From the IMG/VR virus record IMGVR_UViG_3300035661_000078, positions 1 through 55,442 of that record: a stretch of 55,442 bases of DNA; one strand, written 5' to 3'. Shown one piece after another: positions 7,901 to 25,841 of this stretch (within the stretch, counting starts at the first letter, position 1; each line of letters opens with the position of its first letter). The position numbers and the translations under genes were made by a program. The notes under the pieces are model-generated. The model saw only the letters and a list, made by a program, of their open reading frames with translations, had not been told where the DNA came from and ran no database searches. The DNA comes from a virus (lineage: Duplodnaviria; Caudoviricetes).

Positions 7901-10900
7901 ATCCCCTCAAGGTACTGACCGACCAGCTCGGCACGAGTGACCACCGCGACCTCGTGTTGCAGCTCGGTGAGATCCCCGCGGGCATGGAGGGGCAGGCCCG
8001 GGATGCCGCCGCCATGGACCTCATGTTCCAGGCCATGAAGGATCAGGACTTCGGGGGCAATACCAGCGACTTCCACACGGCCCTCCGAGACGCTTGGCGC
8101 GTCACGGAGAAGAAGCGCAGCGCCAAGGTTGACCCCTGGCAGCTGAAGCCCTTCGCGAATTTCTCGGACCTGGAACGCCATGTGCACCGGCTCACCCGGG
8201 GTCTGGATGCCCGGCTCCAGGCCACGAAGGAAGGCGCTGACACGACCCTCGACACCGTGGAGAAGCACCTCTCCGGCAAGAAGGCCGCCCTGGACCAGCT
8301 GCTTCCCGGCGCGCAGGGGCCAGCGAAGGAGGGCCTTGAGGCTAGAGCCGCCCAGATCCGTGCTCAACTGAGCAGGCTGGGGGCCCTTCGGCAGATCCGC
8401 GCAACTGATCCCGAGAACCTCTCCGGCTTCTCCCGGCGCCTGGGCGCTGAGATCCAGGGCTGGACCGAGGATCTTCGCACGGGCCACCAGCGGGGGCAGT
8501 CCCTTGTGGTCACGGATCCCACGGGCGCCAAGTCGGACGAGTACGAAGCCAGGACTGGAGCCATCCCGGTCGGGAAGGACGAGAACGGAGCACCCAGGAT
8601 GCTCGACACGGGCTTGGTGCACGTCTTCCCAAAGGGGGGCACTCTGCCGCTCCAACGGGGACTGGAAATGCGTGGGATCGTCAACCGGGCAACTCCCAAT
8701 GAGGAGCAACTTCGCGCCCTCTGGGAAGCCGACCACAAGCCAGGCGTCCCAGTCGGCGCCGAATTGCCGGATCGCCCCTTGCTGGTGCCGGGCACCTCAT
8801 TCGATTGGGTGCGCGTGGGCAACAAGATCCTCCCCCGGCCTCGTCCCGTGGCCTACACCGAGGAGAGTTTGGAGGCTGGCGAGAACAATGCCACCCGCAA
8901 CGCCGTCCAGAGTGTCGGGCACTATGACCTGGCTGGCTTCGCCCGACACACCAACGCCATCCTGGACAACGCGGGCCTGGAGCGTCTCCCCTGGCGAGAG
9001 ATCAAGGAGGCCCACGAACGAAACGTCACCCTTCCCGAGAGCCGGGAGGCCGAGGCCCAGCGACTCCGCGCCCAGGGCGCCCTGGTTCCCACCGAGGCTC
9101 ACTGGCGGGCTGGTGCCGCGCAGCGCGCCCCCGAACGCTCCCGGGAGGAGATCGCCCGGGAAGCTGCCAAGGCCGAGGAGACTCGTGCTCGCCTCGGGGA
9201 TCCCACCGTGCCACCCACTCCGGAAGAGATCCAGGCCGCCCGTGACAAGCAGAAGGCCCTGACGCCCACCGACGAACTGACCCGCCGCGAAGCCGCCAAT
9301 GAGCTTCGGCGCCTGGGGCCTGGGGCCCTGGCGCTCGCTCCTGACGCTCTGCTCCAGCGGATCCATGATCTTGGTGCTCAACCCATGGATGAGGAAACAA
9401 GGGGCGCCAACCAACTCATCCACGGGGAAACCGTGTTGAGCCACAGCGAATACCGGGCCCTCCTGGACTTTCTGGATAAGGACTTCTTCAACGACCGAAG
9501 CCAGGCCTGGAAGGAGAAGGCTCCCAACCGGGCAGGCGTCAGCGATTCCCTGGCGCGAGCCGCGGGCGTGGACCAGACGGACCTGTCCTCTCCGGCGCGG
9601 CGCGCCGCCGAGATCGAGGCCAGTTCCTTCGACAATCGGCGCGGAGCCGAGGTGTTGGCCGAGAAGAAGGCCGACGCCGACCGGCGCCGGGCCGTGCAGC
9701 TCCGCACCGCGAGCCGGGCCCTGGATCGTCTGCTCAAGGCGGGCATCCTGACCGGCGACGACTTCCTGCTCCCTGGCGCCAAGCCCCATGAGACGAGCCA
9801 GGGCGAGGATGGCGGGATCATCACCCATCGCAACGCAGAGTTCCGGCGCACCGTGCTGGACGCCCTGAATGACGTGGCCGACCTGGACCCCAGGGCCGGC
9901 GACATTGCTAGCGAGCTCTATGCCAAGGTCCAAGAGACCCGTGACACCCAGGGCGATGCGATCCCCGCGGGCCATTCTCCCGACACGAGCTTCTACCGCC
10001 GCGGGGGACGCTGGATCCCCAACCCGGAAAGTGTTGAATCGGAGCCGCTCTTCGATCATCGTCCGGCCGTAGCCGACATGAACCAGGCCACGGGCGCCGA
10101 ACGGAACAGCCTGCTGCACGCCCTGGGACAGAACCCCCACGTCCGTGCCAGCACCCAGCGCATGATGGCCCACGAGCAACTCATGGCCTTCGCGGATCAA
10201 GTCCGCCATGGCGCCACCTTCAAGGACTACCCGGAAGACCTCCGCACCAAGATCGCGGATCATCTGGAAACGAAGGCCGAGGGCCTCGTACATGAGGGGG
10301 ATTGGGCCCTGCGGGATCACCTGGAGAACCAGGGGCAGAGCTACTTCAAGCCCATCATGGAACCCCGGTCCCCCAATGAGGGTCAGCGAACCCTGCTGCG
10401 CGATGAGGACGCGGCGGCCCTGCTGAACCAGAACCACCCGCGCCACGAAGAAGTGCTCCACTGGTTCAACGGGGAGGAAGCGCCGGCCAACCGCTTCGCC
10501 GGGCTGCAGGAGATCCCCGATACCCAAGAGACCCCCGAACAGCGCATCCTCCAGACCCACCTCATCAAGGTGAATCCCACCGTGGATCCCGCCGTTGCCG
10601 TCAAGCAACTGGTGAACGACGCCATGACCTCCATTGGTGAGCTGAACACGACTGCGGACGTGACTGCTCGCGTCTCCCGCTGGGAGAAGTCTGCCGAACC
10701 CCTCCTCCAGGAGCGGGCGGCTACCTGGCACCGCAATCGAGACACCGTGCGGACCATGACGGCCAACGATCCCGAGCTCACGCGCCGGATCCTGGAGATC
10801 ACCGACCGCATGGACCCGGCTCTCTTCTCTGGCCTGACCATCGCCCCCGGCAACGCGGAGGGGAAGATGGGCACCTTCCACTTCGGGAAGAACCTCCTGG

Positions 10901-13900
10901 AATTGCAGACCGGCTTCCAGAACGCCGTGGCCACCCGGGCCACGGAAAAGGCCACGAGCACCTTCTTCCATGAGATGAGCCACTTCCTTTCGACCTGGAT
11001 GGATCCGGCCTTCCGGAGCCGCATCCAGCTGGCCTATGACGACCATGTGACCAAGATGACCCAGGAGGATCCCTTCCTTCGGGCCCTCTTCGGTGAGGGA
11101 AGCCCTGTGCATTGGCAGGGCCTCGATGCTGCCCAGCTCGAGGGCGAGAAGGCCACGTACCTGACGGAAGGCGACCGCGCCGCCCTGGAGAAGCGCCTCC
11201 GCGACATCCCTGGGGAACTGGATTACCTCCGGATGGAAAGCGGCAGCTCTGACCGGATTCTGAACCAGCTCTTCCGCCCGCTGGGGAAGGAGGAGGCCAA
11301 GGATGGCTTCCGTTACGCCCTGGACCTGCGTGAGATCAGCAAGAAAAGCGAGAACTTCCAGCGGTACTATCGCTTCCTGAATCCGGACGAGTGGTTTGCC
11401 GAGACCTTCGGAAACTTCACCCAGATGGCCTTTGGGGGCAACGCCTTCCAGAACGCCAGGGCCCGCTTCCAGGATCTGGTGGGCAACGACCAGCTCCAGA
11501 CCACGAGCGACATGCTGGCGGCCGTGAAGATGGTCCAGGCCATTGCCCCGGGCGAGCGTGGTCCGAGCGGCAGTCAACGACTTCGGGTACTGGGCGATGC
11601 GGTGAAGCTCATGCAGAACCGCGAGGCCCCTGGAATCGGCCGGTCCACCCAGATGAACCGCCCCCTCAGCCGTCCCTTGAGTCCCGTCCCCCGAGAGAAA
11701 CAGGCCCAGGCCCAGGCCGACCTTGAGAACGTGCGGGAAGACGGGCCCACAGCCCGACAGGCCAATGGCCTGCGCGATGGCCTGGACGACGTGGAGCGCC
11801 AGCTCTTCGCGCTGGCCCACCGGGCCGGAAAGGTAGTCGAGCGCCCCATCTCGAAACTCGTGGAACTCATCGCCAGCGATGCCCTCTCTCCGGCCTCCCG
11901 AAATTACAGCCATGTCCTCACCGAGATCCATGCGAAGGCTGGCGCCACCCGGGCCTATGACGAGGTGAAGGCCAACGAGGCCCGCCGAGCTATTGATGCC
12001 GCCTTCCGCCGGGAGAACTCGGATGCCTTCTTCCGGAGCGCCGAGGACCTGGTGAAGGCGGGACGCGCTACCGAGATCAGCAGCATCCAGAACCGTCAGG
12101 GAGTGCGGCTCTTCAAGGGAAAGATCGGGGAGGAACCCATCTGGATCAATACCAACCGGGGCGGGAAGGTACTCCAGGTGATGACCGACCGGCAGATGGA
12201 CGCCTATCGCTTCGTGGAATCCAATGGGGCCAGGGGAGGCCGCCTCCTGACTCCGGAACTTCGGGACCACCTGGCGGCTTGGCTCGAGACGAAGAAAGCC
12301 ATGGATCAGGAGCGAAAGGCTGATTTCCTCTCCATCCCCGGTGTGGACCAGAACCTCGCGGACTCCATGTGGGTAAACGATTACCTGCCCCACCTCTATC
12401 CCCGGTCGGGCTCGGGCCGCACCTTGGACCGGATCCTCGAGGAGCGCGACACAATCGCCAATCTGGATCGCTTCCAACGTCGCGTCTTCCAGGACTATGA
12501 CCACGCCCTGCGGGCGGGCGGCCTGCTCCCGCGGTTGTCGAACCCCGTGGACACCTACCTTCTGGGGGCCCGGGAATCCCAGCGCGCCATGGACCTTCGC
12601 CGCCTCCTCTCCTACATGGAGGAGCGGGGCCTGGCCCACTATGGCTATCGGGACGACCATCCGGACTACAAACGCCTGGAACTGGGCCCCAACGGCAGCT
12701 TGGCCATGAAGCGCCTGGGCTACCACCAGGAGGAACCCCTCGATCCCGGGCAGGAACCCATCAAGGCGCCCCAGAAGGACCTCTGGGTGCATCCAGAATT
12801 GGAGCCTCTGGTTCGGGCAGGCTTCGACTATGGCCTGGCGAAGACCCCCTTTGGCGCGCTGTACCGCACGGCCATGCTGGCGAATCATGTCCTGGCTCCG
12901 GCGAAGCTCACGCTCTCGGGATTCCACCTGGGCACCATTACGAAGCTCGGCGGCGTAGAGGCCATGCGTTCCGCCTATGCCAACTATTCCCGCCTGCGGG
13001 ACATGGGAGTGGATCACGGGGAGGCCCTCACCCGCAGTCTCGACGGGCTGGCTTCCCAGGCGGGCATCAAGGGCGCGCTGGACGAGGGGAAGCGCATGCG
13101 CGACCTCTTCGTGGAGCACGGCCGGAAGTCGGCAGAACAACTGGCCGACCTCAATCTGCCCGCCATGGACAAGGCCAAGATCCTCCTCCTGCGGGCGGGT
13201 GGCTACTCGCCCATGCTGGCCCCGGCACGGGAAAGCATGGAGCGCGAGGCGCTCGCCCAGGCCCTCTCCGAGGGCAAGGTGGCCAAGACGGTCTGGAAGA
13301 GCTACACGGGCCTGATGGAGTCCGTGCAAGACGCCTTGATGAACCACACCATCGCCCCCATCAAGACCGGCCACATCACCCTGGACATGGAACGCATGCT
13401 CCGGGCGAAGTACGGCGAGAATCCCGACCTTGAGAAACTCACCCAGGATCTCTATGCGGGCGCTGACAAGGCCATGCCGGGGCCCTACACCACCACCGAG
13501 CTCGGAGAGTACGCGCGGCAACTGACCGCGCATGCGGACAACGTGTTCGGCATGGTGAACTACAAGAACCTGATGATGCACCCGGTCCTGAAGGACCTGA
13601 TGCACCTGTGGAATCTCAGCTTCGGCTGGCGCCTGGGCACCATGCGAATCATGGGCAAGGCCGTGGATCAGGGCCTGAACGCAACCCCCGTGGTTGGGGC
13701 GGCCTACCGAGGCCTGAAGCGAGGCATGGGCGGAACCGGCATCCACGAGGCGGTAGAAGGTCGGGCCCCCCTGCAGTTCATGGCCGCGCATGGCATGGCC
13801 GACATGCTCACCACGCTGGCCCTGGGCGCCCTGGGCGCGGCGCAGTTCCCCAACTGGCGGAAGAAGAAGGACGAGCAGGGCAACCCCATCGAGGAACCCT

Positions 13901-14838
13901 TCGACTACCAGGCCTTCCGGGGACGGCTGGAGGACCTGGTGTTCCCGGCCCTCTCTGATCGGCTGAACCACAACAGCCTGCAGAACCGCTTCTCGCTGGG
14001 CTACGCCTACGACTTCTGGGATGCCCTGAAGAATCCCCGCGAATGGGCCACCGGGCACACCGCGGGCAACAGCCCGCTCACCCAGATCGCGGCCGAGGCC
14101 ATCACCGGCAAGGACGCCATCGGCAACGAGATCGGCAACCCCTACGACTACACCCCCGTTCTGCCCCAGGAATGGGCGCAGAAGATCGCCACCTGGATGG
14201 CCAATCCTGACTCCAGCGCCTTCCTTGTGGGCGCGGCCCAGCGGGCCCTGCAAGTTCCGAAGGAGTTCCTCCCGATCAGCCTCACCAACGGCTACCGCCT
14301 GGCAAAGGACGGGGAGAATCCTCTCGTGGCGCTGGGCACCTTCGGCGGCCTGCGAAAGGTTCCCGACTTCAAGGGCTTCGGGCAGTCGGACGCCACCCAG
14401 GCCTCCATGGAACTACTCAAAAAGGGGGCCCAGAACCAGCCGAAGACCGCCGACAAGCAGGCCGACAAGAACCTGCGGGACCAGGCTGTGGCCGCCGCCC
14501 TGAACCAACGGGACGCGGATCAGCTGGATCCTCTGGTGGGCAATGGCTACAAGGCGGAGGGCGTGAAGCGGCTGAAGAATGAGCTCTTCGCCCAGCTCGG
14601 CGGGAAGGGCGAGGACGTGCCCCGCGAAGCGGGAGAGCGGTTCTTCCTGCGGGCCCGCTTCGAGGATCGCCTGGCCATCCTGCAGCTGGCGCGCAAGGAC
14701 GAGTTCCAGCGACTCTGGCCCATCTTCGAGAAGGGCGCAGCCAAGGGGCTGCGGGATTTGAAGGACAAGGATCCTGTTTCGGCTCAGATGGCCCAGGACC
14801 GCATTGACCGCCTCAAGACGAAGTGGGGTCTCGAATGA
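4906..14838 (+). CDS. Giant (3310 aa) internal virion / large polyvalent protein with zincin-like metallopeptidase motif and LPD38-like C-terminus
   Basis: Uninterrupted 9.9-kb ORF. FFHEMSH (HExxH, nt 10969-10983) is followed by PDEWFAE. PLTQIAAEAITGKDAIGNEI resembles LPD38. Confidence 0.7.
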   Translation: MPDLFDFDPNQGPLRVATVNGFAGGTFQTPQRLMDGAIWLDRGKTADPNQVSGWYKLGNDGATWQAAGDHIELPNGQEEQFGQAKTFRRSDGAIFLHPKFFGGGPVAGVQKPGWYEQDDKGNLKPAPAEESYSRRAWDAVAGTVKGIGSGIVNTAKTELGKVSNYLATGDSETSPDDAIKAQIDASSDPLATAQQIAQQAPQMGGTALGAAADEAHRFLVGAGEKFLGWGQAAGGLGLKAIGSLTGDPALKREASQLIHDPVTFDHSREKAQRELDLEETIRQLNEQKLTAQMLAKQGSIIGDAQGNPQGVTAEARDLLTAYTANLHKAVALERQVGQDRAVTSGVKNYLAGAGTLGGDTFDLAAQLALMEATGGLGNAAAREAAATTAQAGALATGQKAASTLARLGLSEELAAKAGKTITQALTTGQTAIPSALEAAAEAGGKAGAGRLPRIANWIADTSQAEQAGALSRGLAHAGQGVAMSLPGAVQEFTDLYGGNEDQGALGALWKVIKEQPKVAAVMVPMLSERLRAMTTPFAQTTVAGAAKNAAARTLTLAGTSTLADLLTSGGDPQAIGNLPAHIKGLLGLELLGAARGIGSARETGRQAADTRALAEDQLGEATKALLQDRPALEQVEAILKQAETEATGNPEQQAHLKDLRDELAARVAQHDQRAQAAAEAIAQTDQVANDLGVKPEDLPRPKARKLADPVTSILGKPTEPITSAPTPVPPPASDPVARHERVLAGLDDTRKILERRILDAKVAGKDTTALEDDLAQTKADMQARQAVAAEDAAPPAPAIASPAPDPALDPIARMQAISDAFDAPETANRWPNLGPNEQRAIWLAHGMDDATNRTPEGVAAYHLAMDRANRKIEGRRGPSGDPDRSAMDAIAAPQMIRPAKGLASDASDASDASAARPALAPPDLSGDTNAVMDHPELRKAGLWQGVKGLAESLKGKLDSAMAKVAAQKILARATKEGDGDATLPTKARILAQAALKTRDPLKVLTDQLGTSDHRDLVLQLGEIPAGMEGQARDAAAMDLMFQAMKDQDFGGNTSDFHTALRDAWRVTEKKRSAKVDPWQLKPFANFSDLERHVHRLTRGLDARLQATKEGADTTLDTVEKHLSGKKAALDQLLPGAQGPAKEGLEARAAQIRAQLSRLGALRQIRATDPENLSGFSRRLGAEIQGWTEDLRTGHQRGQSLVVTDPTGAKSDEYEARTGAIPVGKDENGAPRMLDTGLVHVFPKGGTLPLQRGLEMRGIVNRATPNEEQLRALWEADHKPGVPVGAELPDRPLLVPGTSFDWVRVGNKILPRPRPVAYTEESLEAGENNATRNAVQSVGHYDLAGFARHTNAILDNAGLERLPWREIKEAHERNVTLPESREAEAQRLRAQGALVPTEAHWRAGAAQRAPERSREEIAREAAKAEETRARLGDPTVPPTPEEIQAARDKQKALTPTDELTRREAANELRRLGPGALALAPDALLQRIHDLGAQPMDEETRGANQLIHGETVLSHSEYRALLDFLDKDFFNDRSQAWKEKAPNRAGVSDSLARAAGVDQTDLSSPARRAAEIEASSFDNRRGAEVLAEKKADADRRRAVQLRTASRALDRLLKAGILTGDDFLLPGAKPHETSQGEDGGIITHRNAEFRRTVLDALNDVADLDPRAGDIASELYAKVQETRDTQGDAIPAGHSPDTSFYRRGGRWIPNPESVESEPLFDHRPAVADMNQATGAERNSLLHALGQNPHVRASTQRMMAHEQLMAFADQVRHGATFKDYPEDLRTKIADHLETKAEGLVHEGDWALRDHLENQGQSYFKPIMEPRSPNEGQRTLLRDEDAAALLNQNHPRHEEVLHWFNGEEAPANRFAGLQEIPDTQETPEQRILQTHLIKVNPTVDPAVAVKQLVNDAMTSIGELNTTADVTARVSRWEKSAEPLLQERAATWHRNRDTVRTMTANDPELTRRILEITDRMDPALFSGLTIAPGNAEGKMGTFHFGKNLLELQTGFQNAVATRATEKATSTFFHEMSHFLSTWMDPAFRSRIQLAYDDHVTKMTQEDPFLRALFGEGSPVHWQGLDAAQLEGEKATYLTEGDRAALEKRLRDIPGELDYLRMESGSSDRILNQLFRPLGKEEAKDGFRYALDLREISKKSENFQRYYRFLNPDEWFAETFGNFTQMAFGGNAFQNARARFQDLVGNDQLQTTSDMLAAVKMVQAIAPGERGPSGSQRLRVLGDAVKLMQNREAPGIGRSTQMNRPLSRPLSPVPREKQAQAQADLENVREDGPTARQANGLRDGLDDVERQLFALAHRAGKVVERPISKLVELIASDALSPASRNYSHVLTEIHAKAGATRAYDEVKANEARRAIDAAFRRENSDAFFRSAEDLVKAGRATEISSIQNRQGVRLFKGKIGEEPIWINTNRGGKVLQVMTDRQMDAYRFVESNGARGGRLLTPELRDHLAAWLETKKAMDQERKADFLSIPGVDQNLADSMWVNDYLPHLYPRSGSGRTLDRILEERDTIANLDRFQRRVFQDYDHALRAGGLLPRLSNPVDTYLLGARESQRAMDLRRLLSYMEERGLAHYGYRDDHPDYKRLELGPNGSLAMKRLGYHQEEPLDPGQEPIKAPQKDLWVHPELEPLVRAGFDYGLAKTPFGALYRTAMLANHVLAPAKLTLSGFHLGTITKLGGVEAMRSAYANYSRLRDMGVDHGEALTRSLDGLASQAGIKGALDEGKRMRDLFVEHGRKSAEQLADLNLPAMDKAKILLLRAGGYSPMLAPARESMEREALAQALSEGKVAKTVWKSYTGLMESVQDALMNHTIAPIKTGHITLDMERMLRAKYGENPDLEKLTQDLYAGADKAMPGPYTTTELGEYARQLTAHADNVFGMVNYKNLMMHPVLKDLMHLWNLSFGWRLGTMRIMGKAVDQGLNATPVVGAAYRGLKRGMGGTGIHEAVEGRAPLQFMAAHGMADMLTTLALGALGAAQFPNWRKKKDEQGNPIEEPFDYQAFRGRLEDLVFPALSDRLNHNSLQNRFSLGYAYDFWDALKNPREWATGHTAGNSPLTQIAAEAITGKDAIGNEIGNPYDYTPVLPQEWAQKIATWMANPDSSAFLVGAAQRALQVPKEFLPISLTNGYRLAKDGENPLVALGTFGGLRKVPDFKGFGQSDATQASMELLKKGAQNQPKTADKQADKNLRDQAVAAALNQRDADQLDPLVGNGYKAEGVKRLKNELFAQLGGKGEDVPREAGERFFLRARFEDRLAILQLARKDEFQRLWPIFEKGAAKGLRDLKDKDPVSAQMAQDRIDRLKTKWGLE
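7612..7644 (+). repeat. In-frame 9-bp tandem repeat (GCCTCGGAC)x3+ encoding ASDASDASDAS
   Basis: Read directly from the sequence. Confidence 0.9.
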
Positions 14839-19539: not shown

Positions 19540-20721
19540 ATGCCGAAGCTCACGAAGCGCCTGATCGAAGACCTCAGCACACCAGGCCCCCGGATCGAGC
19601 TCTGGGATACCCAGACCATTGGCCTCGGGGTCCGCGTCACGGCCCTGGGCAGGAAAACCTTCACCTACCGCTACACCTACCATGGTACTGGCTACCGGCG
19701 GACCCTGGGAGAATGGCCGGCCCTGAGTCTAGACGAAGCCCGGGAGAAGGCCACCGCCCTGCGCCTGAAGATCCTCCAGGGGGAGCCGCCCCACCTTGAG
19801 GGGGAGCCCTCGACCAAGGATTGCGTCTTCGTGGATCTGGCGGATCGTTTCCTACGCCACCACATCATGCCGAAGCTGGCCGCCTCCACGGTGAAGAGCT
19901 ACCGCTGGATCCTGAAGGGCGTCCTCATCCCCGCCTTTGGCCCCTTGCGTGTGGCGGAGATCGAGGCCCACCACGTTGAAGGGTTCCACGCCTCCTTGTC
20001 CGACTCGCCGCGCACGGCCAACCTGGCCGTGTCCGTCCTCTCGAAGATGATGGAACTGGCGGAACGCTGGGGGTATCGCCCCCGGAACTCGAATCCCTGT
20101 CTCTACCTGGACCGGAACCCCGAGAACCAGCGGGATCGGCACCTCTCCGAGGAGGAGTTGGCGCGCCTTTGGAAGACGCTGGATCAGATGGACGCCACGG
20201 GATCGGAGAGCATCTGGCTCACCGCGGCCGTGCGCTTCGCGTTGCTCACCGGCTGCCGAAAGAGCGAGATCGTCGGCCTCGAATGGCGCGACGTGGACCT
20301 GGGCGCTCACACCTACCGCCTCCGCAAGCACAAGACCGTGGGGGTGCTGGGCCCCGTGCTCAAGCACTTGTCGAAGCCAGCATGGGACCTGCTGCAGGCT
20401 CTTCCGCGAAAGCCTGGAGTGGCCCTCGTCTTTCCGGGCCAGCGGCCCGGATGCCGGGTCCACCTGGATGATGGCTGGTTCCGCATTCGAGCAGCAGCCA
20501 AGCTCCAGGATGTCCATTTCCATGACCTCCGGCACACCTTTGGCACCTTGGCTGGCAGCGAGGGACTCTCCCTGCATGCCATCGGAGGGGCCTTGAACCA
20601 GACCTCCCTACGGACCACCCAGCGGTACACCCACCGGGTCGCTGCCGACACCCAGGCCGTGAACGACAAGGTGGGCGCTGCCATCCTCAAGGCTGCGAGG
20701 AGCTCGGCAGGACAAGACTAG
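19540..20721 (+). CDS. int: Tyrosine recombinase / phage integrase with N-terminal arm-binding (DUF4102-like) domain
   Basis: KLTKRLIEDL..LWDT...GLGVRV....KTF.YRY arm domain; TGCRKSEI, HDLRHTF and TTQRY catalytic motifs. Confidence 0.92.
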   Translation: MPKLTKRLIEDLSTPGPRIELWDTQTIGLGVRVTALGRKTFTYRYTYHGTGYRRTLGEWPALSLDEAREKATALRLKILQGEPPHLEGEPSTKDCVFVDLADRFLRHHIMPKLAASTVKSYRWILKGVLIPAFGPLRVAEIEAHHVEGFHASLSDSPRTANLAVSVLSKMMELAERWGYRPRNSNPCLYLDRNPENQRDRHLSEEELARLWKTLDQMDATGSESIWLTAAVRFALLTGCRKSEIVGLEWRDVDLGAHTYRLRKHKTVGVLGPVLKHLSKPAWDLLQALPRKPGVALVFPGQRPGCRVHLDDGWFRIRAAAKLQDVHFHDLRHTFGTLAGSEGLSLHAIGGALNQTSLRTTQRYTHRVAADTQAVNDKVGAAILKAARSSAGQD

Positions 20722-20742
20722 ATGGTTTCAATCGAGCTACCG

Positions 20743-20771
20743 GGCGGGGCCGGTTAGCTCGGGTGTTAGTC
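20743..20771 (+). mobile_element. attC-like half site (L' and R' only)
   Basis: GGCGGGGCCGGTTAGC-TCGGGT-GTTAGTC resembles the right arm of the 20970-21069 site; its TTA is the stop codon of the minus-strand ORF. Confidence 0.7.
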
Positions 20772-21020
20772 GTTGATATACTTCTCGACCCACAGGTTAT
20801 GCGCGTAAATATCGGATTTGGCGCAAGGCGCGCTATGGTCCTTCGCATGGACGCACCGTTTGTCCCCACAGATCGGGCACACAATCATGCGGGCCAAATT
20901 CAACGGGATTCCGTCCACTCGAAGATCGTGGGTCTGTATGCAGGCAAGGCAGGTGCATGGCGAGGCCGCGCCTAACCCGTCATTCGACTCGGGCCCTGCC
21001 TCAGGTGTGTTCTGGTCCAT
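20766..21020 (-). CDS. Cys/His-rich hypothetical protein (cassette-like; start lies inside the attC loop)
   Basis: CTCLAC...MIVCPICGDKRC.HA..H...C; RBS GAAGGGA and ATG lie within the attC-like site. Confidence 0.7.
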   Translation of the reverse strand: MDQNTPEAGPESNDGLGAASPCTCLACIQTHDLRVDGIPLNLARMIVCPICGDKRCVHAKDHSAPCAKSDIYAHNLWVEKYIND

Positions 21021-21069
21021 GTCGTCCCTTCAGGCCCACGGCGGGACCGGTTAGCTTGGTTTGTTAGGC
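20970..21069 (+). mobile_element. Complete attC-like recombination site (100 bp)
   Basis: GCCTAAC (R'') ... ATTCGACTCGGGCCCTGCC / GGCGGGACCGGTTAGC imperfect stem ... GTTAGGC (R'). Confidence 0.85.
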
Positions 21070-21070
21070 G

Positions 21071-21235
21071 TCAATCATCCGACCCCATGCCGACCAGATC
21101 CAGATAACTATCCCGCTCCGCTTTGCGTTCAGCCATGTTCATCATGGCAAGTAGGTGCTTCGTAGTTAGAGGCTTGTCGCCGTTCTTCTTGATCGAATAT
21201 TCCAGGATTTCCTTCAGGCATTCCCACTCATCCAT
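21071..21235 (-). CDS. Small hypothetical protein (cassette-like)
   Basis: RBS AAGGAG; MDEWECLKEILEYSIKKNGDKPLT; TGA stop lies 1 bp from the attC core. Confidence 0.65.
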   Translation of the reverse strand: MDEWECLKEILEYSIKKNGDKPLTTKHLLAMMNMAERKAERDSYLDLVGMGSDD

Positions 21236-21261
21236 GTCTTCTCCTTTTGTTTTCATCCCGC

Positions 21262-21317
21262 GCCTAACCCGTCGTCCCAGTAGACCCCGTTGGGGCCGCT
21301 GAACTCGGGAGCTAGGT
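21262..21317 (+). mobile_element. Degenerate attC-like site (56 bp)
   Basis: GCCTAAC..GTCCCAGTAGACCCC-GTT-GGGGCCGCTGAAC..GCTAGGT; homologous to 22521-22577; core GTTAG reads GCTAG and is still a stop codon. Confidence 0.75.
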
Positions 21318-21548
21318 CGTTCGATAGTCCGTGGTGATGTGGGTGGCGAGGATAGATCTGGCCGCTTCCACCTGGCCAATCAGATACCCAAGATCACATT
21401 CCTCGTCCTCACGGTTCTTGATGGCTCCCAGTATTTCGCTCAAGTCTTTCAGGTTCTGGTGCGCGTCTAGCAGCAGCCTTCGTGCAACTGGTGCGTCGTC
21501 GCAAAGTGGATCGCCTTCAACAACGCATGAATAAATGGACTTGCTCAT
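21312..21548 (-). CDS. Small hypothetical protein (cassette-like)
   Basis: RBS GAAAGGGA before MSKSIYSC; TAG stop within the attC core. Confidence 0.65.
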   Translation of the reverse strand: MSKSIYSCVVEGDPLCDDAPVARRLLLDAHQNLKDLSEILGAIKNREDEECDLGYLIGQVEAARSILATHITTDYRTT

Positions 21549-21568
21549 ATCGTCCCTTTCACGCTTGC

Positions 21569-21622
21569 GCCTAACCGGGCGCTGCACTCGGACCCTGCCT
21601 CGGGTGCGTTCTAGTTCGTCAT
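21569..21622 (+). mobile_element. attC-like half site (R'', L'' and part of the loop)
   Basis: GCCTAACCGGGCGCTGCACTCGGACCCTGCCTCGGGTGCGTTCT aligns with the left half of 20970-21069; right arm absent. Confidence 0.7.
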
Positions 21623-21654
21623 CTCGCCCGATCTGTACTCAGAGGCGCGGGGAG

Positions 21655-22413
21655 TCATGACATCTCCTTCCTGTGTGCCTCAGCCATACGTAGCGCCTTG
21701 GCCCGCACAAACTCAAAGGCCGCCACGCGCTCCTCAGATTTCGCGCTACCGTCATCAGGGAACTCGCTGGGGTTGCTATTGCGGATGCCGATGGCGTCCC
21801 ACTCATCCACTGAGTGGAAGAGGCATCCCATGAGCACGTAGGGCGCGCCGTCAACACTGACCGCAGCCCAGCATTGGTACTTGTAGAGACCTGTGAGCAC
21901 CACGACTGCGGCCAGTTTCAGGTCCTCGTATCTTGCACCGGTGAGTTTCGCCCCGACAAGATTCGCTCCGGAGAGATCGGCCCCGGCGAGGTCCGCCTCA
22001 TCGAGATTCGCCCCGGAGAGGTTCGCACCGGCCAGTTTCGCCCCAGCCAGGCCTGCACCGTAGAGGCTCGTCCTGGCAAGGTTCGCGCCATAGAGATCAG
22101 CATCGGTAAGGTTTACCATGTCGAGGTTCGCTCCGGTGAGATTCGCACCTGCGAGGTCTGTGCCGTGGAGGTTCGCCCCGGCGAGTATCGCCTTTGTGAG
22201 GTTCGCACCGGAAAGGTCCGCGTCAGAGATGTCGGCACCGGCGAGATCCGACCCGGTGAGATCGACACCGGAGAGATCGGCCCCATAAAGGTCCGCCCTG
22301 GAGTCTTCGTCACCCGCAAGCCATTTCTTGTGATTAGCCAAGACGGTCTGGAGCTTTGCGGGGGTATATCGTTGCAACGTCATCGGAGTTTCCTTCTTGG
22401 TGGTTCGGGTCAT
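21655..22413 (-). CDS. Pentapeptide-repeat protein
   Basis: Long run of A(D/N)LxG repeats followed by a non-repeat C-terminal domain; alternative start at 22383. Confidence 0.92.
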   Translation of the reverse strand: MTRTTKKETPMTLQRYTPAKLQTVLANHKKWLAGDEDSRADLYGADLSGVDLTGSDLAGADISDADLSGANLTKAILAGANLHGTDLAGANLTGANLDMVNLTDADLYGANLARTSLYGAGLAGAKLAGANLSGANLDEADLAGADLSGANLVGAKLTGARYEDLKLAAVVVLTGLYKYQCWAAVSVDGAPYVLMGCLFHSVDEWDAIGIRNSNPSEFPDDGSAKSEERVAAFEFVRAKALRMAEAHRKEMS

Positions 22414-22520
22414 GGGTTCGATCCGTGGAGTTGGGTTGGGTGTCTCTCAATCACTGTTCCGCGCTTATCGAAGATGATGAATTTCGTGTTTCTCGTGGTT
22501 CTCCTTTTGTTGGTTGATCG

Positions 22521-22577
22521 CCCTAACCAGTCGTTCCAGCGGACCCCGTTGGGGCCGCCGAGCTTGGGTCGTTAGGC
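22521..22577 (+). mobile_element. Complete attC-like site (57 bp, 59-base-element type)
   Basis: CCCTAAC CAGTC GTTC(C)AGCGG(A)CCCC GTT GGGGCCGCCGAGC TTGGGTC GTTAGGC; the unpaired C and A on the + strand correspond to the canonical extrahelical G and T on the bottom strand. Confidence 0.88.
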
Positions 22578-22579
22578 GC

Positions 22580-22894
22580 TCAATTACGCTTCAACCATTC
22601 ATAGAGTTTGCCTTTGATGTGGTCTGTCATCTTTGTTCCGAACGGACAAGTTTTGGCCCACTCGTTGGTCAATCCTCCGCTGTGGCAGATGAACTTCTCC
22701 AGTTTGTTGATGCGCGTTTGTAGGTGGGCCTCCCGCGCCGTGTAGCGTTCCCGTTCCTCAGCCCTGCCAGCCTCAAAAATAGCTCTCACCATATCGTTGA
22801 AGCTGAGGGGCATCCTTCGAAACACGTCGCATTCATCGTCCGTCAAGCGCCTAACCTGTCGCTCAAGTCGGACGTTGTCATCTTCCTCTCTCAT
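22580..22894 (-). CDS. Hypothetical protein with attC-derived N-terminus
   Basis: RBS GAAAGGAG; MREEDDNVRLERQVRR, where VRLERQVR is the attC arm read on the bottom strand; TGA lies 2 bp from the next attC. Confidence 0.7.
   Translation of the reverse strand: MREEDDNVRLERQVRRLTDDECDVFRRMPLSFNDMVRAIFEAGRAEERERYTAREAHLQTRINKLEKFICHSGGLTNEWAKTCPFGTKMTDHIKGKLYEWLKRN
22849..22874 (+). mobile_element. attC-like half site (R'' and L'') embedded in a CDS
   Basis: GCCTAACCTGTCGCTCAAGTCGGACG matches a classical attC left arm. Confidence 0.7.
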
Positions 22895-22911
22895 GCTTCT
22901 CCTTTCATGCG

Positions 22912-23244
22912 TCACTGCTCCATTAGCAGGTTGTATTCGAGGTTTCGCTTGGCTCGATCTGAACTGGCGCATTTCGAGCACAGGTTGGTATTCGGCGTGA
23001 TGCTGTGGTCATGCCCGTTGTCGGCAGGACCACCACACCATGGGCATTTGCTCGACCCGGGCCCTTGGGGCTGTGCATGTTCTCGGAGTTGAGAGCAGTT
23101 TTCTTCGTCGTGCTTTTCGGAGGGGAAGAACCAGCGGAGGCATTTTGGGCACTTCCGCTGCTTGTTCCCAGCCTTGATCTGAGCCTCTGCCCAGTCATGC
23201 CATGTGATATATCCTGCGGGGGATGGGCCGAATCGACGCTTCAT
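22912..23244 (-). CDS. Zn-finger-like hypothetical protein
   Basis: CPKC, CPWC and CSKC motifs. Confidence 0.6.
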   Translation of the reverse strand: MKRRFGPSPAGYITWHDWAEAQIKAGNKQRKCPKCLRWFFPSEKHDEENCSQLREHAQPQGPGSSKCPWCGGPADNGHDHSITPNTNLCSKCASSDRAKRNLEYNLLMEQ

Positions 23245-23251
23245 GGTTCCA

Positions 23252-23446
23252 CTAGGTGGACATTGGTGGATTTTCGATGAAGAACGGGCAGTAGAACGGC
23301 GGTGCTGTGGGGCTCAGGTCGGCAAAGATGAGGTGTCCAAGCCCCCTGCCATCGTCTGCCTCACAGTCCATGAAACAGGCGCAGGTATCGCGCTTGCCGC
23401 AGGTCGTTCCGATACACCGGTAAACATCGCGAGAAAGCTGGCTCAT
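23252..23446 (-). CDS. Small Cys-rich hypothetical protein
   Basis: DVYRC.G..C.KR.TC...CPFFI; ATGA coupling. Confidence 0.6.
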   Translation of the reverse strand: MSQLSRDVYRCIGTTCGKRDTCACFMDCEADDGRGLGHLIFADLSPTAPPFYCPFFIENPPMST

Positions 23447-23673
23447 GCCGTCCTCGCCGCCAGTTCCTTGCAGTACTCGATCAGTTCGTCCTGCATCCGC
23501 TTACCGTTGTCGCCAAGGGCAAACCTGATACGGGAGATCAGGTCGAAGGCGCTGGCGTTGTCCTTCCTGGCTTGTTCCAAGTCATCCCGCAGGGAATCCA
23601 GGGCGGGACGCCATACGGACTCGGGGGCATCACAGGTCAGCAGGCATTGTTCGAGGGTTGAAAGGTCAGTCAT
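23443..23673 (-). CDS. Hypothetical protein
   Basis: 76-aa ORF within the leftward operon. Confidence 0.6.
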   Translation of the reverse strand: MTDLSTLEQCLLTCDAPESVWRPALDSLRDDLEQARKDNASAFDLISRIRFALGDNGKRMQDELIEYCKELAARTA

Positions 23674-23695
23674 GTGGGGTGCCTCTGGGCATCTA

Positions 23696-23715
23696 CAGCT
23701 TGGTGTTTGTTAGAC
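23696..23715 (+). mobile_element. Possible attC remnant (R' and part of L')
   Basis: CAGCTTGGTGTTTGTTAGAC compared with TAGCTTGGTTTGTTAGGC of the 20970-21069 site; its TTA is the stop of the DUF551 gene. Confidence 0.5.
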
Positions 23716-24081
23716 GGTCGGGGGTTCAGGGAGGGGCATCCAGTGGGTCGGCTGGCAACCGTCCTCGATGGGCGCATTGGCATCGGCTTCCCAATCACGG
23801 GACCACTCATCACCTTCCCCGGTGTATGTGGCGATGGTGATGAGGCTGGTGTATCCAAGTTCGAGCATGCCGCCTTCGTTCTCATCCAGATAGATCAGCA
23901 CTTCCTGACCCTTCTCGGGGAGGCGGTCAGCGCAGGGAATCCAGCCTTTCAACTTTCGCTCCTTCTCTAGTGCGTCGAGGACATCATCTAAGACCTGGGC
24001 TGTTTCGGGGTCTGTGTTCGGCATAAACTTCTCCAGGCTGAACCCGCCTTCCATCGGTGTCTTTGCGGGGTGGATCGTCAT
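23710..24081 (-). CDS. DUF551-domain phage protein
   Basis: GWIPCADRLPE...VL....PTHWMPLPEPP. Confidence 0.85.
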   Translation of the reverse strand: MTIHPAKTPMEGGFSLEKFMPNTDPETAQVLDDVLDALEKERKLKGWIPCADRLPEKGQEVLIYLDENEGGMLELGYTSLITIATYTGEGDEWSRDWEADANAPIEDGCQPTHWMPLPEPPTV

Positions 24082-24224
24082 GGCATCCTCCGGGTCTTGG
24101 TGGTGTCGTGGGTGCGAGGCCCGCTGCGCCGCTCGTCGGGCGGGGGTAGCAGCAGGATCGTCACCAGGCCGAGGATGAAGAGGAAGAAGAGGCAGAGCTG
24201 ATATTCGAAGTTGGCGTCAAGCAT
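24078..24224 (-). CDS. Small membrane protein
   Basis: LCLFFLFILGLVTILLL TM helix. Confidence 0.5.
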   Translation of the reverse strand: MLDANFEYQLCLFFLFILGLVTILLLPPPDERRSGPRTHDTTKTRRMP

Positions 24225-24387
24225 TGGGCGCCTCATCTGTAGGCAATGGTTCCAGGTCTTCGATCCGGTAGGATGCGATCTCACCAGACCTCATCGCGCA
24301 GGCCACCGGGGCTAGGTCAACCATGACGAGCAGGAAGAACAACGTGACGAGTACCGCTTCCAGGTGGCGCGGGTTGATCCTTGGCAT
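24217..24387 (-). CDS. Small membrane protein (not in ORF track)
   Basis: Manually translated: MPRINPRHLEAVLVTLFFLLVMVDLAPV..., 56 aa, fills the operon gap. Confidence 0.45.
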   Translation of the reverse strand: MPRINPRHLEAVLVTLFFLLVMVDLAPVACAMRSGEIASYRIEDLEPLPTDEAPNA

Positions 24388-24389
24388 GC

Positions 24390-24572
24390 CTACTCTCCAA
24401 AGATGATTTCGTGCAGCGTGGCTGGCAGGGTCACGAGTACGGTGGGAGTCTCAAGGATCTGGAGGTAGATGCGCTCCCGCTCCTCGTTGCGGAGCTGCTT
24501 CAGCTCCTTGTCCTGGCGCTCCACCACGCGGCGGAGCTGGTGTTCGTTCATGTCTTCGATTTCGGAAAGCAT
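24390..24572 (-). CDS. Small coiled-coil protein
   Basis: RBS AGGAG; 60 aa. Confidence 0.55.
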   Translation of the reverse strand: MLSEIEDMNEHQLRRVVERQDKELKQLRNEERERIYLQILETPTVLVTLPATLHEIIFGE

Positions 24573-24581
24573 GCGGTGCTC

Positions 24582-25028
24582 CTAGGCAGCAGAGGGTTGG
24601 CGGGTCTTTGTGGCGAGCCGGTAGGCCTGGCTCTTCCGGCGGTGGTAGGCGCAGCGACTGAAGCCCTGGGCCCGCTCCTCGGGCGTCAGGTGGGTGGAAC
24701 AGCGGGTGCAGATGCCCCGCTTGCGATTGTTGGCCCGGTGCCGCAGCGTGATCTCGGCCTGCGCCTCGGCACAGGCGGCACAGGTCAACCTCCCCTCGAC
24801 GGGCTCACGATCGAAGCACACGGCACACCACCCCTTGGCGATGGCCTCCCGTCGCTTCTCGTGGAGTATGCGGGCGTTGTACTCCGAGCGTTTCTTTCCG
24901 CAACTCCGGCAGGTCTGCCGGTCTCGGCGATCCTCCTCCCGGGTTCCGCCACAATCCCGGCAGCGGCCCGACGCAAGGATGCGCTGGACACTCTGGGCAT
25001 TGCCGCGTCTTTTCGCTTTGGTGCTCAT
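24582..25028 (-). CDS. Basic multi-CxxC (Zn-finger) protein
   Basis: RBS GGAGG; three tandem G.CxxC...CxxC/H units. Confidence 0.7.
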   Translation of the reverse strand: MSTKAKRRGNAQSVQRILASGRCRDCGGTREEDRRDRQTCRSCGKKRSEYNARILHEKRREAIAKGWCAVCFDREPVEGRLTCAACAEAQAEITLRHRANNRKRGICTRCSTHLTPEERAQGFSRCAYHRRKSQAYRLATKTRQPSAA

Positions 25029-25181
25029 GGGAACCTCCCGAACAAAGTATTGCAAATCACACCGACTTTCAACGAAAAACGGTTGAGTTCATTAACAAGT
25101 TAAAACTATCCATTACAGGGGGTCATAACTTCTGTGTTGACATGGTGATATAAAGCCATCAACACACGCGAAGGTGGCCCC

Positions 25182-25841
25182 ATGACGCTCAAAGCGAATC
25201 CTTTTGTCACGGCTGTTGCCAACTACAAGGGCGGCGTGGGCAAGTCCACCGTGGCCGTCCACCTGGCGGCGCACCTGGGCGCCAGCCTCATTGACCTGGA
25301 TCAGAACGGGGACAGCGCCCGCTTCGGCCTGCGGGCAGGCCTCGACACCCATCGAATGCACGACGCCAGCCCGGAGGAGGTCTTCGATCTGGTGGCTCAG
25401 CTCCGCAAGGACGGCCGCAGCGTGGTGCTGGATTGTCCGCCAGGCTCCAGTTACCTGACCCAGGTTGCCCTCCTGACCTGCGACGCCGTGCTGTGCCCCA
25501 CGCGCCCCGGTCCCAACGATGTCTACGCCATCGGTCGCGTGAACCTCGCGGTGAAGGACGCGAGTTCGGCCCGCCAGGAGCCCATCCCCCTGCTCTACAT
25601 TTGCAACTTCTTCCGGAATACCGAGGTCGCCAAAATCTTCGTGGGCACACTTCAATCCTCCGACAAGGGGGAGTACATCGGCCGCATGTGGGAGCGGAAG
25701 GAATACGCCGAGGCGGTGGAGGCGGGCGTCCCGGTCTGGGACTTCGCCCCGAAGTCAACAGGTGCCGAGGAAATGCGGAACCTGGTTTGCTTCCTGGAGG
25801 CCACCCGCGGCTCCCGGGAGAAGGTGCGGCGACATGCCTAA
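25182..25841 (+). CDS. parA: ParA-family partition ATPase (short, type Ib-like)
   Basis: Deviant Walker A NYKGGVGKST, IDLDQNG and VLDCPP motifs; no N-terminal HTH. Confidence 0.9.
   Translation: MTLKANPFVTAVANYKGGVGKSTVAVHLAAHLGASLIDLDQNGDSARFGLRAGLDTHRMHDASPEEVFDLVAQLRKDGRSVVLDCPPGSSYLTQVALLTCDAVLCPTRPGPNDVYAIGRVNLAVKDASSARQEPIPLLYICNFFRNTEVAKIFVGTLQSSDKGEYIGRMWERKEYAEAVEAGVPVWDFAPKSTGAEEMRNLVCFLEATRGSREKVRRHA

Follow-up and report, generated by a model that had tools for sequence, protein, structure and literature searches.

In the temperate phage genome of IMG/VR virus record IMGVR_UViG_3300035661_000078 (55,442 bases, the whole record, hereafter called the window; 78% complete by the CheckV estimate), a minus-strand gene for a small cysteine-rich (Cys-rich) protein very probably starts inside the attC recombination site of its own cassette. 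This cassette is a mirror image of the canonical integron cassette, its attC site (the head) and its gene would form one mobile unit, and no integron integrase was found in the window. The early region of the phage carries a short cluster of attC sites lacking integron integrases (CALIN), that is, integron-type cassettes without an integron integrase: three sites matched by R1, a covariance model described below, lie within 1.6 kb in a single orientation (minus), and a search with TIGR02249 gives no integron integrase match. The small minus-strand genes of this region point toward the 3' end of the phage integrase gene, with repeats between them whose minus-strand sequence is GCCTAAC...GGTTAGGC. 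The site and gene that carry the argument have the following parts, with lengths in nucleotides (nt).

20970 to 21069, minus strand (the bottom strand of the site, which is the gene-sense strand): attC site forming the head of the Cys-rich cassette, its loop enlarged by a 47-nt insert (R1, 27.1 bits, E 5.4e-5)
21063 to 21069, minus strand: R' box GCCTAAC, with the probable crossover at 21064|21063, placed by the AAC position (Nivina 2016, PMC5027507) and by breakpoints in relatives
21025 to 21031, minus strand: Shine-Dalgarno (SD)-like GAAGGGA in the loop, 4 nt before the ATG
21018 to 21020, minus strand: ATG start codon, the sole in-frame start between the stop at 21032-21030 and Cys22
20970 to 20976, minus strand: R'' box GTTAGGC, which with the preceding GG encodes Gly15-Leu16-Gly17
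20766 to 21020, minus strand: Cys-rich protein of 84 residues that begins MDQNTPEAGPESNDGLGAASPCTC..., with residues 1-20 as attC-encoded leader and residues 21-84 as conserved domain

An earlier note on this DNA had placed a ribosome-binding site (RBS) and an ATG in the minus-strand loop of this site and had read an open reading frame (ORF) from there through the arm and core into the Cys-rich gene, and the letters bear this out exactly, the core being GGG TTA GGC at 20978-20970. The stop codon of the upstream gene, TGA at 21073-21071, lies 1 nt before the GCCTAAC box, a second TGA, in frame with the Cys-rich gene, stands at 21032-21030 ahead of ATG 21020, and the Cys-rich ORF ends with TAA at 20768-20766. 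The GAAGGGA motif resembles the GAAAGGGACGAT-ATG that precedes the gene starting at 21548. From ATG 21020 to Cys22 (20957) there is no further in-frame ATG, GTG or TTG, and ATG 21020 is therefore the only start for a protein that keeps its CxCxxC motif. Judged by this logic and by gene calls, translation would begin at ATG 21020.

The repeats belong to a family that extends well beyond the window. Relatives of the Cys-rich protein in metagenome contigs lie in dense arrays of the same repeat, and a pattern derived from these arrays occurs at at least 145 places in bacterial genomes, labelled mostly Betaproteobacteria and Acidobacteriota, and at 30 in viral contigs. Three bacterial arrays of the family adjoin integron integrase genes, which score 478-487 bits against TIGR02249 (cut-off 265). 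The sites of the integron array L258 are 81 nt long, and their 5' arm is one letter off window 21069-21047. R1 was built from an alignment of 46 sites taken from bacterial genomes only; this alignment has an attC-like structure (96% paired, with 6 pairs changed on both sides) and a covariation score reached by 0/500 shuffles. Searched with R1 with filters off, the window gave three matches, every one on the minus strand, namely the site at the head of the Cys-rich gene and the following two.

22520 to 22577, minus strand: attC site, the best preserved of the array (R1, 36.6 bits, E 1.7e-7; DNA fold z -2.38)
21262 to 21317, minus strand: attC site, head of the cassette of a 54-residue protein gene whose RBS and ATG come after the site (R1, 19.5 bits, E 0.005)

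The first of these reads GCCTAAC...GGGG T CCGCTG G AAC GACTG GTTAGGG (22577-22520), with both the extrahelical T and the extrahelical G present in the 3' arm, 6 bases apart. At 20970-21069, both boxes follow the attC consensus on the minus strand (R' RYYYAAC as GCCTAAC, R'' GTTRRRY as GTTAGGC), the plus strand scores 10.4 bits (E 1.3) against 27.1 bits for the minus strand, and the R1 alignment puts the RBS and the ATG in the 47-nt insert in the terminal loop. Eleven sites of related contigs, one L258 integron attC among them, were folded, and ten gave z scores of -3.2 to -5.4, the exception being L063:2390-2492 (z -0.01). The SD motif and the ATG lie in the open loop of the predicted structures at L063:941, L064:1260, L064:1613, L072, L074:855 and L061, and in L067 the ATG lies in the stem. 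At the level of sequence, the R1 match and an arm sequence like that of the arrays linked to IntI identify the repeats as integron attC sites. Phage 'start-associated sequences' and terminator repeats had also been considered, and they were dropped after the R1 model, the IntI-linked arrays and the breakpoints at R'.

In canonical attC sites, the AAC that is cleaved lies in R' of the bottom strand (5'-RYYYAAC-3'), the opposite arm carries the extrahelical bases (a T, and a G in L''), and IntI1 requires a 6-bp stem between the first and last extrahelical bases (Nivina 2016, PMC5027507). The gene-sense strand of the phage sites has this bottom-strand layout. In three IntI-bearing integrons, the strand matched by R1 is the one encoding intI, and in the L258 integron Pfam supports 7/16 ORFs opposite the model strand and 0/11 on it, intI set aside. 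The coding strand of the window cassettes is the minus strand, given by a pentapeptide-repeat protein (Pfam E 3.5e-39) and by the Cys-rich domain, which recurs at 57 viral loci. Since the window genes lie on the bottom strand, each attC stands 5' of its own gene and is part of the same cassette, and the cut AA|C is thus expected at 21064|21063, in the far box and not in the gene-proximal one.

Breakpoints in relatives fall at that far box. The Cys cassette is identical in L065/L066, L067 and L074, from a ..YAAC box via head and gene to ..GCCTAAC, and its flanks are unrelated, with three contexts upstream and two downstream. In an all-against-all comparison of contigs, 10/16 non-edge ends of homology lie within 10 nt of R', 0/16 within 10 nt of R'' and 6 elsewhere; between related contigs homology ends at GCCTAA|C and not at GGG TTA GGC. 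Because the breaks fall at R' and none at R'', the leader belongs to the gene's own cassette, and leader and gene travel together. The earlier note had supposed that a gene joined in frame at the core would receive an attC-encoded leader, and this is not supported by homology, which breaks at the far box in 10/16 cases and at the gene-proximal box in 0/16. The idea of a start module made portable at the core is not right, because head and gene form one back-to-front cassette. We infer that the crossover in this phage lies at 21064|21063 and that the window cassettes are still mobile at the present day.

Upstream stop codons sit in the R' box (TAA in GACTAAC, TAG in ACCTAGC) or 1-3 nt before it at 20765-20771, 21311-21317, 21063-21073 and 22571-22582 (minus strand). 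The end of a cassette is thus marked by its own stop codon, placed at the crossover box.

Comparison of homologues sets the leader apart from the rest of the protein. A clustered protein search returned 8 relatives, and at 47 of the 57 viral loci similarity sets in no earlier than query residue 18, past the core-encoded residues; stand-alone viral forms begin 2-10 residues before CxC (e.g., L038 and L053). Sixteen metagenome loci encode the Cys-rich protein, and 15 of them show the 5' end of the gene. In ten of these 15, the ORF starts at an ATG upstream of the GTTAGGC core, with six versions of the leader among them, and a complete attC recognized by R1 surrounds the start in nine of the ten, L069 having a half-site. 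Homologues with the same N-terminus without an attC would speak against a site-encoded leader; the five loci without a core (L059, L060, L068, L070 and L071) instead carry a gene with its own short N-terminus. The homologues thus support the claim that the site contributes the RBS, the start codon and roughly the first 17-20 residues of the Cys-rich protein, as similarity among them mostly starts after the leader. The residues GLG are kept in P0001, P0003, P0004 and P0005 and are replaced by GLC in P0002 and by WLG in P0006; the window and P0001 differ by one in-frame indel.

Past the leader, C24 and C27 are kept in at least 90% of 39 sequences, and P0008 lacks CxCxxC with the remainder of the domain kept. 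A structure prediction with AlphaFold2 (AF2) from the 39-row alignment gave predicted local distance difference test (pLDDT) values of 46-47 for residues 1-20 and of 90-95 for residues 21-80, which suggests that the attC-encoded leader behaves as a disordered appendage. The domain has the motif CxCxxC...CPxCG[DN]KRCxH...H...C, seen at 20766-20957 (minus strand) and in loci L002-L058. It matches no Pfam or PHROG family, and its AF2 model has no Foldseek match in the PDB at E <=10 and no VIA-align match at Z >=2.

How general loop-borne starts are was counted in 29 viral contigs with 106 R1 sites, with sites below 27 bits and L243 (a duplicate of L238) left out. A site counted as having this feature if it contained an ATG with an SD-like motif and an ORF extended at least 40 codons beyond it.

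Viral sites of at least 93 nt: bottom strand 19/29, top strand 0/29
Viral sites of middle length: bottom strand 2/24, top strand 0/24
Short viral sites: bottom strand 1/53, top strand 0/53

The top strand thus shows the feature in 0/106 sites overall. Among 250 bacterial sites at E <=1e-6 from 71 loci, 14 reach at least 93 nt, and one of these 14 has the feature, that in L089, which is near-identical to the attC before the Cys-rich gene in L063; the other 13, which are long inverted repeats in sequence, lack such a start. That long bacterial attCs are long for the same reason as viral ones was accordingly ruled out, with SD and ATG in 1/14 and longer stems in the rest. The long attCs of the bacterial loci L099, L079, L095 and L092 measure 115-129 nt, and the extra length of viral sites is loop.

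The mirror orientation was counted from the longest ORF on either strand of every inter-site interval, at a match threshold of E <=1e-5, with the bacterial ORFs drawn from the best 150 R1 hits (64 loci).

Viral arrays, PHROGs: bottom-strand ORFs with a match 15/72, top-strand 0/61
Bacterial arrays of the same attC family, Pfam: bottom-strand ORFs with a match 0/67, top-strand 36/70

Matches on the 'wrong' strand are thus absent from the viral and the bacterial set alike. The pentapeptide and Cys-rich genes of the window lie on the model (bottom) strand, contrary to the canonical cassette, whereas bacterial arrays of the same attC family do have the canonical gene on the top strand. In the viral contig that holds L238 and L243, about 35 kb apart, the two have identical R1 coordinates and scores; the array is therefore either present twice in this contig or misassembled.

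Read in the gene sense, the cassette would run from the C of R' through the 5' arm, the loop, the 3' arm with its extrahelical bases and the R'' box GTTAGGC to the gene, its stop and GCCTAA, with the attC as 5' leader of its own gene. In the Cys-rich cassette, an insert of about 47 nt would have enlarged the variable terminal loop and would carry the RBS and the ATG, and the 3' arm and R'' box would encode a disordered leader (...SNDGLG, about 17-20 residues) before the conserved, zinc-finger-like domain. An integron integrase supplied by the host would cut AA|C of R', directly past the upstream stop, and head and gene would then move jointly.

Two other places in the array bear on this arrangement.

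22580 to 22894, minus strand: 104-residue ORF, with RBS at 22899-22905 and ATG at 22892-22894, read via a relic R'' arm at 22847-22873
21567 to 21622, minus strand: decayed copy of the Cys gene's head, with ATG at 21622-21620, TAG at 21613-21611, R'' arm and GTTAGGC at 21575-21569, and no 5' arm
21312 to 21548, minus strand: 78-residue protein gene, unrelated to the Cys-rich gene, with its own GAAAGGGACGAT-ATG downstream of the decayed head

The same design had been claimed for 22894-22849, and the letters there are as described (AAAGGAG at 22905-22899, ATG at 22894-22892, GTTAGGC at 22855-22849). The RBS, the start and the core thus stand; the hairpin does not, as only the gene-proximal arm of a site is there, R1 has no match at E <=10, and the fold does not exceed chance (z -0.64). 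The 104-residue protein is a mosaic whose first 45 residues recur in the 59-residue P0012 and the rest in L262 at 4998-5276, and by this comparison it looks chimeric. L262 is a related 57-kb phage in which the homologue has another N-terminus and no attC; L263, a relative reached by searching viral contigs with the 104-residue protein, has one weak match. The decayed head at 21567-21622 is 80% identical to 20968-21016 over 49 nt, reads ATG ACG AAC TAG and has no R1 match. It is the one hint, in the letters, that a head can come to precede another gene, and it does not appear to be used as a start there. Without the TAG, its frame (21545-21622, minus strand) would end at the TGA at 21547-21545, which overlaps the ATG of the 78-residue protein gene (ATGA), and it looks like a former leader or coupling ORF.

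Several observations weigh against the account of a start inside a mobile, mirror-image cassette. The TIGR02249 search finds no integron integrase on the contig and matches the phage integrase alone (17.6 bits against a cut-off of 265), and the contig is about 78% complete, so that an IntI could sit elsewhere. Half-sites occupy 2/5 junctions of the array, no excision product was seen, and the start at ATG 21020 is drawn from sequence logic and gene calls. Several of the ten R' breakpoints are the same events in near-identical contigs, leaving about four independent ones. Viral-contig sites below 27 bits had been removed before loop-borne starts were counted, and the viral and bacterial orientation counts use different libraries and the longest ORF only, with most ORFs unmatched. 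Finally, the copy at 20970-21069 folds no better than shuffles (z +0.33 as DNA, z -0.25 as RNA) though its R1 match is full length, and in the R1 alignment it has a C at the position of the extrahelical T, the G being kept, and four non-standard pairs; it looks degraded and may have lost its ability to recombine. The earlier note had also suggested that folding of the hairpin could gate translation; in this copy no fold above chance is seen.

Some of these points would suit a quite improbable alternative, in which the repeats are attC-like intergenic repeats of phages, acting as RNA hairpins in processing, termination or coupling, spread by homologous or illegitimate recombination and not substrates of an integron integrase, so that the start in the loop would be a feature of the 5' untranslated region. 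The contig without an integron integrase (TIGR02249), the copy at 20970-21069 without a fold above chance and the two half-site junctions fit it, as does the suggestion that off-target homologous or illegitimate recombination might have been the route by which the motifs entered phages (Qi 2023, PMC9892861). Such repeats would nonetheless have to score up to 36.6 bits against a model made from bacterial sites alone, share their arm sequence with attCs beside IntI, retain at 22520-22577 the 6-base spacing of extrahelical T and G that IntI1 needs, and have homology end in the R' box; moreover, five of six phage attCs recombine with IntI1 (Qi 2023, PMC9892861). An extremely improbable reading is that the leader is not translated, the Cys-rich ORF being a dead or start-less remnant or being started internally (GTG Val35, ATG Met45) to give a shorter protein. 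In-frame GTG, TTG and ATG codons are indeed present downstream, P0008 does without CxCxxC and retains the rest of the domain, and the attC copy is degraded. Yet CxCxxC is nearly invariant (C24 and C27 in at least 90% of the 39 sequences), AF2 gives residues 21-80 as a single confident unit, the internal ATG has no purine-rich tract before it, and the frame is open from the loop ATG in 10 loci with six leaders, with the one indel against P0001 in frame.

The portable start module of the earlier note, in which cassettes would be joined at G|TTAGGC and a gene in frame would be fused to a leader from its neighbor's attC, appears decidedly improbable. It would account for the decayed head, whose 80% identity over 49 nt includes loop letters outside the attC consensus and which stands before the unrelated 78-residue protein gene (21567-21622), and top strands do recombine, at lower frequency (Nivina 2016, PMC5027507), in which case the crossover would fall at the gene-proximal box. 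Against it, the gene-sense strand is the bottom strand, with the cleaved AAC in the far box; homology ends at the gene-proximal box in 0/16 cases and at the far box in 10/16; the Cys cassette retains its own head in three contexts; and at 21567-21622 a TAG interrupts the head ORF, and the gene behind the core is preceded by an RBS and an ATG of its own.

The rest of the window is that of a temperate phage, with functions assigned by Pfam and PHROGs that include an integrase, ParA, DnaB, small and large terminase subunits, a portal/adaptor protein, a major head protein, a tail fibre and an endolysin. The neighbors of the Cys-rich cassette are these.

19540 to 20721, plus strand: phage tyrosine integrase (Pfam Arm-DNA-bind_3 and Phage_integrase; phrog_1), of phage type and not an integron integrase
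20725 to 20771, minus strand: terminal half-site with R' GACTAAC, whose TAA is the stop of the Cys-rich gene, a 5' arm and a perfect hairpin (z -3.93)
21071 to 21235, minus strand: 54-residue cassette gene, from the ORF list, with no family match in Pfam or PHROGs
21655 to 22413, minus strand: pentapeptide-repeat protein (Pfam PF00805, E 3.5e-39; phrog_7713, E 7.8e-43), which anchors the coding strand

The terminal half-site ends the array, abutting the stop codon of the phage integrase gene. A promoter scan of 20600-25300 gave 0 sites, and a search via the phage integrase gave no relatives. At 22410-22507 (minus strand), past the attC at 22520-22577, a strong AAAGGAG (22507-22501) is followed after 4 nt by ACG instead of ATG, and then by a 28-codon frame whose end overlaps the first codon of the pentapeptide gene (ATGA); by its letters, this may be a small ORF with a mutated start.

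Contigs from four DNA runs were mapped to 20300-24200. The assemblies break at attC arms, and the arm at 21567-21599 is common to 5-7 contigs per run, which run on into unlike sequence. Nothing was drawn from the joints 21599>22552, 21078>22841 and 21308>23709, because their sides measure only 20-32 nt. In contigs of four metagenome runs, the DUF551 gene (23709-24081, minus strand) has loose ends at both sides, and one weak joint bypasses it; the gene may represent a module that varies separately and has no attC sites. An ORF of 3310 residues at 4906-14838 (plus strand) has no PHROG match at E <=1e-5.

Phage attCs and CALINs, the anatomy of attC, start signals in attI and engineered coding attCs have all been published already. 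The phage CALINs described are alike in having co-oriented attCs, no IntI, and small genes of unknown function between the sites, and two phage arrays were called typical of bacterial ones (Qi 2023, PMC9892861); the accessible text of that report is silent on bottom-strand genes and on starts within attC, and the terms 'start codon', 'antisense' and 'opposite' occur in it 0 times. The phage sites resemble canonical attCs in their R' and R'' boxes, their L boxes and unpaired central spacer, an extrahelical G and T at a distance of 6 bp (both present at 22520-22577), and a terminal structure whose variation is the source of length differences (Nivina 2016, PMC5027507). A canonical cassette, however, has a top-strand gene followed on its 3' side by the attC and is expressed from Pc (Nivina 2016, PMC5027507), whereas the phage gene occupies the bottom strand, the attC precedes it and the attC loop holds the RBS and the ATG.

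About 20% of cassettes are without their own initiation region, and ORF-11, ORF-18 and ORF-17 of attI1 likewise show a recombination site with an SD motif and an ATG that serves the adjacent cassette gene (reviewed in PMC8876359). Located in attI, these ORFs extend across the crossover, terminate within or close to the incoming cassette and work through translational coupling (PMC8876359). Unlike them, the phage ORF has its start within the attC of its own cassette, leaves the crossover outside and leads on into the protein, beginning 43 nt downstream of the presumed crossover and running for 84 codons, and thus is not of the ORF-11 type. Synthetic attCs placed in coding sequence also put one DNA under attC and protein-coding constraints, but they were engineered, in linkers and within lacZ (Nivina 2020, PMC7439510), whereas the phage case is natural, N-terminal and includes the initiation signals. 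In the openly accessible literature, supplements aside, no description was found of mirrored phage cassettes or of loop-borne starts. Apparently new, then, is that phage cassettes of this attC family are back to front, and that their long attCs owe this length to a loop in which the RBS, the start and the first codons lie.

A broader reading, which we hold to be unlikely, is that phages maintain a distinct pool of mirror-image cassettes, with the attC hairpin co-opted as a 5' leader, that expression is coupled to shuffling, and that rare exchange at R'' passes heads on to other genes. Transcription of the phage early operon would leave the recombinogenic bottom strand single-stranded, and since this is also the sense strand, expression would be coupled to cassette shuffling; phage cassettes placed in a bacterial integron would be silent, because they are antisense to Pc. 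Rare exchange at the gene-proximal R'' would equip another gene with a head (RBS, ATG and leader), an event hinted at by 21567-21622, and in such an exchange the portable start module would be real.

If the start of the Cys-rich gene in the attC of its own cassette holds true, one natural stretch of DNA acts as recombination hairpin, 5' untranslated region and coding sequence. Phage and bacterial cassette pools would be separated by expression, though not by recombination, and tools that assume an attC 3' of its gene would misdraw the boundaries and gene starts of phage cassettes. That the Cys-rich family occurs both with and without an attC head would then also bear on the genesis of cassettes.

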